DNA of 64,000 bases, taken from Escherichia coli. GTDB taxonomy: Bacteria > Pseudomonadota > Gammaproteobacteria > Enterobacterales > Enterobacteriaceae. Location: assembly GCF_048403405.1 (NCBI RefSeq), contig NZ_CP183131.1; one strand, written 5' to 3'. Below, one piece after another: positions 13,080-19,000 of the stretch (position 1 is its first letter; every line of letters begins with the position of its first letter). The position numbers are program-made.

Positions 13080-16000
13080 TAAAAACTGGGGATAACGCCT
13101 TAAATGGCGAAGAAACGGTCTAAATAGGCTGATTCGATGTGTTTGCGGGAAAAAAATCGGCCCAGATCCGCGAAATTTTAATCAGCGAGTCAGCTTGGGA
13201 AGAAATGACCTGCTTATTCGCACCTTCCCTAACGGAAATCCAAGCAGATATACTGCTCTATATTTTAAACCGGTTTTTTTCATCTTATTATTTATCTATA
13301 TGTTTTGAAATCTTATCTACAATGGATGTAGTATCCATATTCATTATCCTCCCTGCTTTTTCAATCAGAAACTCAGCTTCATTTGTTATGTTCTTTGACT
13401 CTTCATTAATAATGTCAATGATAGTTTCTAGTGCGATTCCATACTCACCCACATCAATAAATTCTTGCACTTCTATACTTTCAGATTCAGAAAACGAATC
13501 AGACAGCACCATAAGCAAAAGATCTAGCGTGGATTCAATTTCTCTATATTCATTTTTCATTTTGGATTCCTTGGTACGTTTGTTGGAAAACCTGAAACAA
13601 TATCACCATTAGATTCTTGTATTACACGAACATTAATACCTTCTTTAACTGCCTCTGCAATAGTCCTACCACCGCGCCCAGCCTTTCGAGAAACATTTGG
13701 ATCGGTAGCTATATCGGAAATGACGTGCATAATTTTTTCATCAGACCAACTTTGAGGAAACTCACTTTTTCCAGGCTTGCCTGTTCCTGCTCGATGCCCT
13801 CCACCAGTGGCGTCACCATCAAGAATATGCTTACGTCTCTGGGAACTGGCTAGGTCTACAAAATCATCAGCCGTATTTTTAAAAGCGCGTTCCGCAACAT
13901 TCCCTAGCGCCTTATAGTTGCCAGGCAGGATAATCCCAGCAGCAAAAAGCCCCCCGGAAATCCACTTTTCTCTTGAGGTCGCACAATCACTGGTGATGGT
14001 CTTGAAGGTGTCATAGGCGTCCCAAGCGCTCAAGGCAAAGTCTATGGCAACATAAGCCCCCAGAAGAAGCGGCACAAACTCCCCTGTTGGATCTGCATTG
14101 CCTATCGGGTTGCTCAGCGCATAGGCATAGGTGTTAATCCCACCAGCCAGCCCAATCGGGTCACTGGTGATGTAACGCCCGGTATTCGGGTCGTAGTAAC
14201 GCCGCCAGTTGTAGTGGAGCCCGGTCTCCGCGTCGTAATACTGTCCTGGGAACCGCAAATTGAAGGTCGGCCCCTGAGTGGTGATGCTGGCCTTACCGAA
14301 CGGGCTGTAGCTCGCCTTCCAAACCACTTGGCCGCTGGCGTCGGTTAGCGCCTTCGGGGTGCCCAGATGATCGACGTGGACTTGATAGGTCTGTCCTGAC
14401 TGAGCAAAGCTCAAGGGGGTGCCATCGAGCCAGATATACTCCGCCAGCACGTCTCCAGTGGCTGCGTCCAGCTCCTCGATGAGGTTTCCTGCCAAGCCGT
14501 AAATCAGTAGGCGGGTCTGGCCGTTTAGGGTCTTAGTTACACGCTGATCCAGATGGTTGTAGGTGTAAGCTGCTGTCACTCCAGCGACCGTTGCGGCCAC
14601 CAGCCGGTTCTGGCTGTCATAGGTGAAGGTATCCGCCCCCTGCTTCGTCAGGTTGCCATTGGCGTCATAGCTTCTGGAGGTTTGCCCAGTCTTCACCAGC
14701 CAGTTGTTCATGTAGTTGATGGTGTAGCTTTGGCTCAGGCCATCGGTCGTGATCGAGGTCCTGTTGCCGGTGGCGTCATAGCCATAGCCCAAAACGCCAT
14801 AGAGCCCCTCAGCAGAGGTGATGCGGCCAACCGCGTCATAACCGAGTGACTGATTGACTGATGAGCTGAGATTGTCGTCTATGGCTGAAATCAACGAGTC
14901 TGGCGTGTACCGATAGACCAGCGAATGCACTCTAGTAGCGTCGATGCCGGTGACTCGGTAATTGAGATCCAAAGAGCGACTTTCTGAAATGCCGTTCCAT
15001 CTGACCATACTGGTGACGGGGCCAAAGGGCGCTCGCTCGATCTGGCTTGCCAGGCTTGTTGTGGTGCCTGCTTGTGTCGTTGCCACCTCGATGACGTCAC
15101 CGGCTAAATCACGGGTGTAGGAAACCTCACGACCACTGGGATACGTGATCTTCGTGATGAGGCCTGCACCATCGTATTGGTACTGGGTAGTAAGGCTCTG
15201 CCCGTGGGTTTCCCAGGTCTCGTAAGCCAACCATCCTTCGGGTGTATAGCCATATCTCCGGACACCGTTGCCATCATCGACTGAGGTCAAGCGGCCCATG
15301 CCGTATGGTGAGGTTGCTTCGTCGTACCCGTACAGAATTGGCGATTCGCCAGCGACACCGCTGGATGCCTCGATGATCCGGTTCAGCGCGTCGTAGCTGT
15401 AGCTTGTGGTTTGTCCCTTGGCCGTCTTGCGCGTTGCCACGTTACCGGCTTCGTCATAGGTAATGTCGGTGGTGCCGGTGTCCGGGCTCCGGACCTGAGT
15501 CACTTCGCCAAAGCCGTTGTAGCTGTAGTAGGTCAGGCGCGAACGAGGGTCGGAGACACGGTAAACATCGCCGGTATCCTTGTAGAGCACCTGCGTGACC
15601 TTCCCGAGTGGATCGGTCGTTTGTGTCCGGTGATGGAAGCCGTCGTACTTGTAGGAGTGTGTGTTACCAGAGGGACTGGTCTCCTGTATCAGGTTTGCCA
15701 CCACATCGTAGGAAAACGATGACTGATTGCTATAGGCGTCGGAGACACTGGAGAGCCAGCCGATTTCGTTGAAGATCCGGCGCTCTATCCAACGGGTCTG
15801 GCCCAGCGCATCGAGCAGTCGCTCTTCTACTGGGTTCCCGAGGTCATTGAGCTCAAGCTCGCGCCGGTTGCCCTGTGCATCTGTTTCCGCCACCAGCCGA
15901 TGTGCAGCGTCGTACTCATAGCTGACGGTTGCACCATTTGGCTTAGTCAGCGAGCTCAGGAGGCCCACAGCATCATAGTTGTAGGCCGTGGTTCCTTCTG

Positions 16001-19000
16001 GTCCAGTGGAGCTGACAAGTCTTCCTCTGGCGTCATAGGTGAGGGTTTGGGTTACACCGTTGACGCCCTGAATGGTCCCGGCGCGACCGTTCGCGTCGTA
16101 GTCACCAAACTGCATCACCTGCCCCAGCGCGTTTGTTGTCCGGATCAGGTTGCCCTGGTCATCGTAGTCAAATGTCGTAACATCGCTGACGTCGGTGCGC
16201 GGACCATCAACCGAGGCCAACAGGCTCGGCTTTCCTGTACCAACAGGGGCATAGGTGTAGGTCCATGTCCGGGAAGCGCCCGAGCTGCGATCTGTGACCT
16301 TGCGGCTTATCACCCGGAGATGAGTGTCGTAGGTAAGCTCAGTGATCCTGGTTGGTTCCGTGATTTTTGCAGGGAGCGACTTGGAAGGAAGCCAGTCGGT
16401 CGTAACCTTGCCCCCATCCTGGTCTATCTGGGTGGTTTCCAATCCCCGGTCGTTATGGGTGAACGTGCGCTTCTGTCCAGCACGATCTGTAATGCTGGAG
16501 ACGAGGCCTTTGCTGTCGTAGACGTAGGTTTCCTTGCCTCCCACAAAGCCGGTACACGGCGCACCCTCAACAACATCAGGCTTGAGCATCCCGTTGTGAC
16601 GGCTGTAGGTATATCGCTGAACGTGGCCGAGGGCGTTGGTGACAGAGACGCTTCCGTCAGCGTTGTAGCTTACCTGAGTCTTCTCTGCGCCCCCGGCGTG
16701 TTCACTTAGAACTGCCATCCCCTGAGCATCATATCCCCATGTGGCGAAACGGTTGCCGTTCTCGTCCACCAGCCCAGAGAGCAAACCCGGTGCATTCGGG
16801 TCATCGTAGAGATAGCTGCGGCTCGTATTGTCCTGGTAGATCACTTCCGCCAGCTTGCCAGCGCTGTTGTACTGGTACTGAATACTGCCACCAGCAGGAT
16901 CGGTGACACTGACCATGCGGCCATCTTGATGCTGGAACTGGATGTTGCGGCCAAAGCCGTCAGTGATCGAGGATAGCTCTCCGTTCAGATAGCTCAGGGT
17001 GATGTGATTGCCGTTGGGCTTCTCGATGCCGGTCAGTCGTCCGGTTTCATCATAGGCCTCGACTACCCCGTCAGATTGAGTGTAACGCCAGCCGGTAGCA
17101 TCCTTCGTCAAGGTATCATCGGTTTTCCATGTTGGCACCCAGACAGAGGACGAGTTGTAGAACGCGAGTTGTTGCCCTTCTGGCCGGTGCAGGACAACCA
17201 TGTTCTCACCGTACTTCGAGGCGTTGACCTCGACGCTCCGCGAGTAGGTATGCCGCCAGCCGCCGAGCTCTTCATCAGGAAGGTGGCTATTGTAGTATCT
17301 GGTGAATGTGAAAGGGTCGGAGCCTCCGCTTTGATAATCCAGTTCAGCCTGGAACTTGTTGCCGGTGCCAAGATGGATAGGGTTCCCTACACACATGGTC
17401 GTTGTTGGTAAGCCGAGATCCCTGTCCAGGAACGGTGTTTTATCCATCTCACCCGGCAGAACATAGGTTGAGCGCCAGTAGACCGTAGCTGGGTCGCCAG
17501 TGCAGGTAGTGGGGTCATAATCGCCAGTAGCACCTAGATACTTAAAACAGATCCTGGAGACATAACGGCCATCACCATAACTGGCAACCGGATAAAGCGC
17601 ATCCCCAACTGGCGTTCCCTTCCCTTGCTCCTCACCAGAGCGATAATTCTTCATGAAGGAATGCGCGTCTATGATGGTGTTGAAGCGCATTTTGTCTACT
17701 TCGGTGCTCACGGCTACAACCCGCCATTGTGCAAAAGCAACGCATGGCAAAGTTGCGAGCACCACAACGGCCAATGACCGCAGGTTTCGCATCAGTAAAA
17801 GGGAAGGTCTCGATCTCATTTACAGCTCCAGTTTTTATGCTGGAGCTATTTTCAGGTGGGAGAGTCGTTATCAACGACTGCGTTTTTGCCCTTTTAGGGT
17901 ATGAATACGTGATTTGGAGAGGTTGTGTATTCAGAACAAATGAGAAGCAGGTTACTCATTTCGCTCAAACACTGTGACAAGAACACGTTTTTGGTTGTCG
18001 TCGTTGATCACCATCAGGTACTTGAACTTGGAATCTCTATGGCCCCAGACTTCCACGTTATCTACGCGGCCATACTTTCTGGCTTTATGGCGAGCCACTT
18101 TCTCGTCAAAGGGTTGAACCTGTAACTCTGGATGCTGGAGGCGACCAACGAGTGAGGCCCACGGTTTTTTAGGGTCTCCAGAGGTTATCCGGGCCTGATA
18201 CTGATCGATGGCATGTTGAGTAACAAGGACGGGACCAATGGCCGGTGTAGAGATTTCGTCATGGGTTTGAGTATAGGCTTGCTTGTCCACATCGAGGAGC
18301 TCAACGTTGCCCTCACCCGGCTCATCCATAAACTCCATGCTCTGCGAAACTTCAATAGTAGCGCCCTTTAAACGTCCAGTGAGGCAAGCCGCAAACTTGA
18401 ATGCAAACTCCTTGGTGGATTTGCCCAGCGCCAGCTTTTTAATCGCACCTTTGGATACCACCAGCTTGTAACCAGCACCAGCACCTGGCTCTCTGCAAAA
18501 AACCTGTTTGTCCAGCGCCAGATAGCGAATGGCTACGAGCTCAGCCAAAAGATCTGCCTCCTCGTTGTCAAAATCAATACGAACATCAAGGATGCCTTTC
18601 CGTTTTGTACCAACGCGCCAGAATACAAGGGCTGAATTATTAGAAGTTTTCTTCGAGACAGTAGTCAGTGTCATCATGGTCTATTTCTCCATTATCGGGA
18701 TAATGGTCGGCATCGCCGCCAGCACCCCTATTCGTTAGGGTTCATTTAGATGCTACCACGGGTTTTAAAAATGCAACCCCTAGTGCCACTCTATTTGTGG
18801 TCCCAAGTATTTTTATAAGCTCGGGCTAGGCGTTTCTCTATCACTTCTGACAAATTGCAACCATCGACTTCTGCCAACCGCTTCAAAATCCTGTGGGCTT
18901 TATCGCTTATAGTTATGCTTTTACCAACACCATATCCCCTTCTGCGACGTTGCCTAATTGATGTCCCGAGTTTATTGATTTGCTCTGCTGTCAGATATTT

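Follow-up and report, generated by a model that had tools for sequence, protein, structure and literature searches.

In a 64,000-nucleotide stretch of Escherichia coli DNA (contig NZ_CP183131.1 of assembly GCF_048403405.1; hereafter, the window), the minus strand carries, between positions 13288 and 17819, a gene for a large Rhs protein that is followed by a 90-amino-acid (aa) open reading frame (ORF). Judged from its sequence and synteny, this locus is the known backbone gene rhs2 of conjugative, multidrug-resistance type 2 IncC (IncA/C2) plasmids together with its neighbor, vcrx128-vcrx129 in pVCR94, whose toxin domain was assigned in 2014 and whose regulation was measured in 2014 and 2021. 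The reading that we favor, and that we hold with moderate confidence, is that the two genes form a Sec-dependent Rhs toxin system on the IncC backbone, which would mediate antagonism favoring cells with the same plasmid allele and would be deployed when the plasmid is competent for transfer. An earlier reading of the window made without database searches (the sequence-only reading) had described an Rhs ORF with an AT-rich tip and an acidic 90-aa ORF in this interval. That observation is confirmed, since the ORF calls, the Rhs domains, and a sharp change in GC content and codon-position composition at the core boundary were all recovered, while the interpretation attached to it is, as a whole, partly supported.

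The placement on the IncC backbone follows from several lines of comparison. Over 4.67 kb, the locus matches dozens of complete plasmids at 100% identity; these come from E. coli, Klebsiella, Salmonella, Vibrio, and further hosts and are typed as IncC, MOBH, and MPF_F. The surrounding gene order is also that of the IncC backbone, running from ter, exonuclease, and int through rhs to primase, phosphoadenosine phosphosulfate (PAPS) reductase, dcm, bet/exo, traN, traU, a trbC-type gene, and traC. The alleles rhs1 (type 1) and rhs2 (type 2) are in use for typing IncC plasmids (PMC6872532, PMC7652850). Plasmid MT559997, whose allele is rhs1 in the literature, matches the window only from position 14148 upward, that is, over the Rhs core, with 96.9% identity and an unrelated tip; because this rhs1 plasmid shares the core only, the window carries rhs2. 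When set beside rhs2 of the type 2 IncC plasmids pR55 and pVCR94, the gene is the same at 100% nucleotide identity, with the same promoter box for the conjugation activator AcaCD at the same spacing and the same synteny (pri ... 133-aa ORF, 241-aa ORF, rhs, mafI ... int, ter); it differs in that the window copy has the insertion sequence (IS) IS5 in the next downstream gene and in that the database versions have shortened N-termini. Specifically, vcrx126, vcrx127, vcrx128, and vcrx129 match in length and spacing the window ORFs at 18791-19192 and 17952-18677, rhs counted from M56, and the 90-aa ORF.

By its repeat shell, core motifs, and exchangeable tip, Rhs2 is predicted to be a polymorphic toxin of the Rhs/YD-repeat type. 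In Pfam and NCBIfam, PF05593 scored 260.7 bits across 11 RHS/YD stretches and TIGR01643 scored 183.7 bits, and the Rhs-associated core (residues 1148-1246) was recognized by TIGR03696 (89.5 bits) and PF03527 (48.9 bits). The motifs DPIGL and DPTGE within this core correspond in sequence to the DPxGL/DPxG autoproteolysis motifs. The sequence-only reading had placed a DPxGL motif near 14280 and had estimated the tip at about 240 aa; the motif is in fact DPIGL at 14148-14162 (residues 1220-1224), and the tip measures 196 aa after DPIGL or 173 aa after DPTGE. Its proposal of a swapped, AT-rich toxin/immunity cassette is borne out by the allele comparison, in which rhs1 and rhs2 are 96.9% identical as far as Leu1224 of DPIGL (window 14148) and unrelated beyond, so that the break at this Leu appears to be the classical Rhs tip-displacement point. 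Each of the two alleles has its own immunity gene, that of rhs1 encoding a 146-aa protein unrelated to the one in the window. The GC content is 0.56 in the Rhs core, 0.47 in the tip, and 0.32 in the 90-aa ORF; GC at third codon positions (GC3) is 0.66, 0.37, and 0.28, respectively, with an abrupt shift at the core boundary, and the AT-rich stretch extends downstream as far as about 11400. The rhs2 stop and the start of the 90-aa ORF overlap by 4 nt (ATGA), through which the 90-aa ORF is predicted to be translationally coupled to rhs2. Across the plasmid family, the tips comprise EndoU, an unassigned HHW type, a WHH DNase, and a glycine-zipper type, with their own immunity genes and orphan arrays.

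The toxin domain, which the sequence-only reading could not assign, was identified by profile search of the C-terminus: EndoU_bacteria (PF14436) matched the full protein at 36.2 bits and the isolated tip at 45.9 bits, both above its cut-off of 25.3 bits, and the modeled fold is of the BECR type. A homologue search with the tip gave 474 significant matches, and PF14436 was present in 118 of the 120 matches listed; the listed EndoU homologues are carried by Rhs, HINT, and other proteins. In an alignment of 32 homologues, H1331, H1342, and K1351 are invariant. Taken together, the profile matches suggest that the tip is an EndoU-type RNase toxin, with a predicted fold that is that of the BECR RNases. 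An EndoU domain in this IncC plasmid gene had already been recorded in 2014 by Carraro et al., as a 'secreted toxin' (PMC3915882). A sequence search against solved structures returned matches at chance level only for both the tip and the immunity protein. The cassette of EndoU tip and immunity gene is found in 319 PLSDB plasmids at a coverage of at least 80%.

The downstream ORF had been proposed as the immunity gene, and at the level of protein family this stands: its product belongs to the MafI family (NF033691, 64.5 bits, cut-off 31), and MafI follows EndoU in unrelated genomes. There, 89-aa MafI homologues with 35-40% identity, likewise above the NF033691 cut-off, lie directly after orphan EndoU toxins in Salmonella and in Massilia, the Salmonella pair standing behind a PAAR-Rhs and the Massilia pair behind a giant SpvB/TcdB-Rhs. 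Because the pairing recurs in these two genomes, the EndoU-MafI association is conserved across unrelated carriers. For the nearest relative that has been tested, MafB(MGI-1) of Neisseria meningitidis NEM8013, it has been shown experimentally that an EndoU-fold, U-specific RNase is blocked by its MafI (PMC4287609).

Between the DPTGE cleavage motif and the toxin domain, the tip contains a hydrophobic helical-hairpin module of 55 aa. A third A/C-type allele, located on the Enterobacter hormaechei plasmid pRIVM_C010068_1 (our locus L008, about 10640-10810), has this module at 86% identity, but in it a WHH/colicin-type DNase tip stands in place of EndoU and is followed by its own 96-aa immunity gene; many Rhs-EndoU homologues carry the hairpin as well. 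Since the module is common to EndoU and WHH alleles, the tip recombines at two points rather than one. Its presence ahead of two different nucleases that act in the cytoplasm suggests, by analogy with CdiA-CT entry domains, that it may be a membrane-translocation or entry element.

We then considered the N-terminus, where the sequence-only reading had described a Sec-type signal peptide in place of a PAAR- or VgrG-linked domain, a description with which our results agree. The signal peptide, MRSRPSLLLMRNLRSLAVVVLATLPCVAFA followed by QW at the predicted cleavage site, has four Arg in its n-region, a hydrophobic core of 15 residues (maximum Kyte-Doolittle value 2.56), and AFA at positions -3 to -1; no lipobox is present in it, and a GGAG Shine-Dalgarno sequence precedes the ATG. 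Five divergent homologues, among them a Vibrio owensii plasmid protein (46% identity) and two metagenomic proteins, have retained a signal peptide that differs in sequence, and their cleavage sites (slash) read AxA/QWR in three cases and ALA/LQWR and AHA/AWK in the others. Because the start site mapped by rapid amplification of cDNA ends (5'-RACE) lies upstream, the signal peptide is typical, and divergent homologues have signal peptides too, we take the first ATG (17819) as the true start; on these grounds, the signal peptide is predicted to be real and to have been hidden by the database annotations. The RefSeq entry WP_014342219.1 begins at the GTG codon V37 (window 17711; 1384 aa) and the pVCR94 annotation begins at M56 (window 17654), and because both starts lie downstream of the signal peptide, the database entries look cytoplasmic. 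No PAAR, prePAAR, or VgrG domain was found in Rhs2 in Pfam or NCBIfam at E≤0.01.

The signal peptide is followed by a lineage-specific domain (residues 31-142), for which an exhaustive search of 1.84 billion representative sequences recovered 15 proteins at E≤0.001, the long ones all being Rhs proteins; a word-indexed homologue search with the N-terminus returned fragments only. Because the exhaustive search finds just 15 proteins, the domain is genuinely rare. By tblastn it was detected in 820 plasmids, 774 of which are predicted to be conjugative. The divergent copies that we inspected are also on MOBH/MPF_F plasmids, the contigs of the distant homologues being too short for genomic context. 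The domain is almost confined to MOBH/MPF_F conjugative plasmids, namely IncC, IncA-like, and pAQU-like Vibrio plasmids. Zhang et al. 2012 described polymorphic toxins that depend on Sec and the type II secretion system (T2SS), in which the signal peptide is followed by lineage-specific domains and the carriers include RHS repeats (PMC3482391), and the architecture of Rhs2 appears to be that of this Sec/T2SS-dependent class.

The rhs-mafI operon belongs to the conjugation regulon of AcaCD, an FlhDC-like master activator. The binding, start-site, and expression data on this point come from the pVCR94 literature and not from the window's plasmid. For pVCR94deltaX, Carraro et al. 2014 reported an AcaCD peak by chromatin immunoprecipitation with exonuclease digestion (ChIP-exo) at the rhs promoter, with a 29-bp motif at 94587-94615 (p 2.5e-9; Table S3 of PMC4207636), a 5'-RACE start site at 94651-94652 for the vcrx128-vcrx129 promoter (PMC4207636), and an expression value of 0 in the acaCD deletion versus 349 in the complemented strain (PMC4207636); vcrx128-vcrx129 is given there as a predicted operon, and the name rhs is never used in that paper (PMC4207636). 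In later work, a lacZ fusion to the rhs promoter was built, and virtually all promoters but three named others were activated by AcaCD and by SgaCD of SGI1 (PMC8373056). The pVCR94 motif maps base for base onto the window, where the box lies about 36 nt upstream of the transcription start. Perfect matches to the core CCCYAAAAGGGCMA are found in the 64-kb window only at rhs, upstream of traN (52726-52739), and upstream of a vcrx114-type operon (25823-25836); with two mismatches allowed, there are 8 matches versus 1.9 expected by chance. The distance from the rhs box to the vcrx114 box is 7937 nt both in the window and in pVCR94. Given the AcaCD box in the rhs promoter, the toxin would therefore be made together with the transfer apparatus. 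A sigma-70 promoter scan found nothing upstream of rhs, and this absence fits an activator-dependent promoter. The sequence-only reading had stated that no secretion genes lie nearby, which holds for a type VI secretion system (T6SS), domains of which (vgrG, adaptor, chaperone) were not found in the neighboring ORFs or in the 24 larger ORFs of the window, where only backbone functions and those of a type IV secretion system (T4SS) appeared. It does not hold for conjugation, as the plasmid has a complete F-type T4SS, with traN, traU, trbC-type, and traC genes at 49.8-59 kb, and rhs-mafI is co-regulated with it in the AcaCD regulon.

Several further sequence elements were noticed in connection with this regulation. 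A perfect 7-bp inverted repeat, AGTCGTT ATC AACGACT, lies at 17863-17879, in the part of the rhs promoter that separates the AcaCD box from the -10 region, and could be an operator or a 5' structure of the RNA. A look-alike of the AcaCD core with one mismatch, CCCAAAAAGGGCAA, is located at 44542-44555 (minus strand) within an ssb-like ORF and is absent from the published ChIP-exo peaks. With up to 3 mismatches allowed, the AcaCD core was not found upstream of the Vibrio plasmid rhs; about 80 nt ahead of the start codon of that gene (our locus L003, 14706-14725, minus strand), we noticed by eye GCGCCCGTATAGGGCAGTTAAGC, which resembles the IncC core CCCTAAAAGGGCAA. It may be the box of the Vibrio plasmid's AcaCD homologue. 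At least 5 copies of an iteron-like repeat, TTCCTAATATTAAGCT, also lie upstream of the Vibrio plasmid rhs (L003, about 14900-15110, minus strand).

On the reading that we favor, rhs-mafI is transcribed in dependence on AcaCD alongside the conjugation genes and translated from the first ATG, and the protein, its Sec signal peptide cleaved, would be exported to the periplasm, where it would fold with the shell enclosing an autocleaved tip. It would then reach the surface or the medium by a step unlinked to the gene, for example through a T2SS of the host, through outer-membrane vesicles, or by lysis. The N-terminal domain may serve for surface attachment or target binding, the hairpin module may carry the nuclease across the inner membrane of the target, and the RNase would cleave RNA and arrest the growth of neighbors without the plasmid's MafI.

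A number of points weigh against this reading. No outer-membrane secretion component is linked to rhs2, the step from periplasm to target being pure inference; it is mainly because the outer-membrane step has no sequence support that our confidence goes no higher. The starts annotated in RefSeq and pVCR94 would cut off the signal peptide, and the fold of the N-terminal domain could be neither modeled nor assigned. The Pfam EndoU alignment spans profile positions 63-128 only, the invariant His pair lying just N-terminal of the aligned stretch, and because this is the second half of the model, H1331, H1342, and K1351 are only candidate catalytic residues. Finally, IS elements or resistance islands have often landed in rhs, and the plasmids concerned can still conjugate, so that rhs is dispensable for plasmid replication and transfer.

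It is tempting to go one step further and to suppose that a broad-host-range resistance plasmid arms its host in this way and that the N-terminal domain of this Sec-exported Rhs, switched on with conjugation, provides a new T6SS-independent exit from Gram-negative cells, possibly at the mating junction, so that plasmid-free or failed recipients would be poisoned and transconjugants protected by MafI; we regard this as unlikely. Quite unlikely, in our view, is conjugation-coupled delivery in the stricter sense, by which periplasmic Rhs would be passed via or alongside the F-type mating junction and would poison recipients or bystanders that lack MafI, thus enforcing plasmid spread. The direct activation of rhs-mafI by AcaCD together with the tra operons, the near restriction of the N-terminal domain to MOBH/MPF_F conjugative plasmids, and the fact that the plasmid encodes no other secretion machinery would all suit such a route. 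However, the coupling protein recruits the substrates of conjugative T4SSs from the cytoplasm rather than the periplasm, Rhs2 shows no evident T4SS translocation signal, plasmids with a disrupted rhs transfer normally, and co-regulation alone does not demonstrate a common route.

Alternatively, tip and MafI might act inside the cell as a toxin-antitoxin pair that stabilizes the plasmid by post-segregational killing, an explanation to which we attach a low probability. A similar role has been put forward for Rhs elements of Salmonella (Starsta et al. 2020, as cited in PMC12406693) and was suggested by authors working on related pAQU-type plasmids, and the plasmid carries the toxin gene in tight coupling with the immunity gene. 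Yet a toxin-antitoxin pair would have no need of a signal peptide that is conserved or of a shell of 1200 aa that is kept by purifying selection; the coding strand ahead of the tip showed neither a promoter-like site nor an in-frame start preceded by a ribosome-binding site; expression depends on AcaCD and is not constitutive; and a separate IncC toxin-antitoxin pair, vcrx027/028, is already present. Just as low is the probability that we give to the view that rhs2 has no function or is decaying, being carried along mainly as a site where resistance islands insert. Interruptions of the gene by IS3, IS30, or ARI-type islands are frequent, one insert being 122 kb long, and in the window IS5 lies within the downstream gene of the cassette. 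Against this, the ORF of 1420 codons is unbroken, with 100% conservation in many hosts, and the dedicated, regulated promoter is conserved, with 1 base different between the rhs1 and rhs2 alleles in the promoter region. The two cores differ by 115 nucleotides and 33 amino acids over 1224 codons, with a ratio of nonsynonymous to synonymous substitution rates (dN/dS) of 0.137, and orthologues persist in Vibrio plasmids, the one of Vibrio owensii being collinear at 46% identity overall. Because of this dN/dS, the near-identical promoter, and the orthologues at 46% identity, rhs2 is probably not a dead passenger.

That Rhs2 is a cargo effector of a host chromosomal T6SS is very improbable, and a T6SS-dependent effector was rejected on domain content and the signal peptide: most characterized Gram-negative Rhs toxins are indeed T6SS effectors, and the same EndoU/MafI cassette occurs in an orphan array behind a Salmonella PAAR-Rhs, but Rhs2 is without a PAAR, prePAAR, or VgrG domain, genes for Eag, DUF4123, or DUF2169 adaptors are absent from its vicinity, its Sec signal peptide would direct it to the periplasm, which is incompatible with cytoplasmic loading on a T6SS spike, and many hosts of the plasmid are without an active T6SS. 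Two other candidates were set aside as well. SpvB and TcdB_toxin_midN domains and tcA/tcB genes were not found in Rhs2 or its neighbors, and a TcB/TcC component of a Tc (ABC) toxin was rejected on domain content; PADLOC returned zero matches for Rhs, MafI, and three neighboring ORFs, and an anti-phage defense system was rejected for lack of a match.

Downstream of mafI, two small, AT-rich genes for transmembrane (TM) proteins follow (Table 1). The first, of 80 aa, is split by IS5 in the window; it is intact in reference IncC plasmids (WP_000750746.1), from which IS5 is absent, and shares 27% identity with a TM protein of 84 aa from the orphan array on the Vibrio plasmid. The second, of 99 aa, shows 40% identity (E 5e-27) to a 99-aa ORF that follows an orphan glycine-zipper Rhs C-terminal tip (Rhs-CT) on the Vibrio owensii plasmid p2. 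From these resemblances, both are probably orphan immunity genes against toxins of sister plasmids; no orphan toxin fragment adjoins either of them in the window. On the other side of rhs, the 133-aa ORF (vcrx126; 18791-19192, minus strand) has a weak match to the MatP N-terminal domain and is silent in published RNA-seq, and a strong terminator-like hairpin of 10 base pairs with a T-run precedes it at 19239-19262 (minus strand). Positions 1-5200 of the window are not IncC backbone: they hold a TonB-receptor fragment, IS903B-like and truncated ISEcp1-like transposases, and a fragment of a methyl-accepting chemotaxis protein (MCP), and they match ISEcp1/IS903B/blaCTX-M-14/24 modules that are inserted beside ter in many plasmids. 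The best-matching records for the left end of the window carry about 1.5 kb that is missing from it.

Table 1. Coordinates of rhs2, its product's domains, its promoter, and the downstream genes in the window
Feature	Position	Strand	Basis or remark
rhs2 coding sequence, 1420 aa	13557-17819	-	ORF call
AcaCD box, ATTCATACCCTAAAAGGGCAAAAACGCAG	17878-17906	-	mapped from pVCR94
rhs-mafI transcription start	17841-17842	-	mapped from pVCR94 5'-RACE; 22 nt upstream of first ATG
Shine-Dalgarno GGAG	17826-17829	-	read from sequence; 6 nt before first ATG
Sec signal peptide, residues 1-30	17730-17819	-	predicted signal peptidase I (SPase I) cleavage AFA/QW
Lineage-specific N-terminal domain, residues 31-142 (112 aa)	17394-17729	-	conserved Cys91, Cys106
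DUF6531 (Rhs plug), residues 145-220	17160-17387	-	PF20148, 50.7 bits
YD/RHS-repeat shell and Rhs-associated core	14082-17159	-	PF05593, TIGR01643, TIGR03696, PF03527
DPIGL, residues 1220-1224	14148-14162	-	
DPTGE (second motif), residues 1243-1247	14079-14093	-	
Hydrophobic helical-hairpin module, 55 aa, residues 1248-1302	13914-14078	-	AlphaFold2 helices
Predicted EndoU-family (BECR fold) RNase toxin domain, residues ~1318-1420	13560-13868	-	PF14436, predicted fold
mafI-family immunity gene, 90 aa, acidic (vcrx129 in pVCR94)	13288-13560	-	
80-aa two-TM ORF, 5' part	13229-13283	-	starts 5 nt past mafI stop
IS5 insertion, 1195 bp	12034-13228	+	TTAG duplication at 12030-12033 and 13229-13232
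80-aa two-TM ORF, 3' part	11842-12033	-	
99-aa TM ORF (MEINNW...)	11495-11794	-	orphan immunity-like

Several known systems resemble Rhs2 in part. MafB(MGI-1, NEM8013)/MafI is alike in its Sec signal peptide, a lineage-specific N-terminal domain, a C-terminal EndoU-family RNase, and a mafI gene that follows (PMC4287609, PMC3482391), whereas it lacks both the Rhs/YD shell and the DPxGL autoprotease, has DUF1020 as its N-terminal domain, and resides in chromosomal islands instead of on a conjugative plasmid and has no tie to a conjugation regulator. The PAAR-Rhs effectors of the T6SS, for example in Salmonella (our locus L006), have the same DUF6531 plug, YD shell, core motifs, exchangeable tips, immunity genes, and orphan arrays, and the Salmonella locus includes an orphan cassette of the same EndoU/MafI family; they differ in their prePAAR/PAAR N-termini and cytoplasmic loading, where Rhs2 has a Sec signal peptide and a domain specific to the plasmid family. 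WapA of Bacillus subtilis and Streptococcus suis is a Sec-exported, Rhs-type protein with a C-terminal nuclease, a downstream immunity gene, and no T6SS, and in these respects Rhs2 appears likewise organized, but WapA is Gram-positive and wall-associated, with no outer membrane to cross, and has another N-terminal domain. The CdiA-CT toxins (EndoU type 5hkq; BECR tRNases 6cp9, 8ey4, and 7m5f) are also among the closest known systems; they are delivered by the filament of a two-partner type V secretion system and not by an Rhs shell, and the role of the Rhs2 hairpin as an entry domain is putative.

In Enterobacterales and Vibrio, IncC plasmids rank among the principal carriers of genes for carbapenemases and extended-spectrum β-lactamases (ESBLs), and the rhs gene of their backbone has so far been used only as a typing marker (rhs1 or rhs2). 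To what was known of it, the present analysis adds a corrected start codon and a predicted signal peptide, the link between the published AcaCD data and a toxin, the modular structure of the tip, and the probable orphan immunity genes. If true, our reading would make rhs2 a tractable case of a Gram-negative Rhs toxin that is exported without a T6SS, and it raises the questions of how an Rhs protein exported by Sec gets out of a Gram-negative cell and for what reason a conjugative plasmid co-activates an Rhs with its transfer genes. The ecological success of IncC plasmids could be due in part to the toxin, provided that it is deployed together with conjugation.

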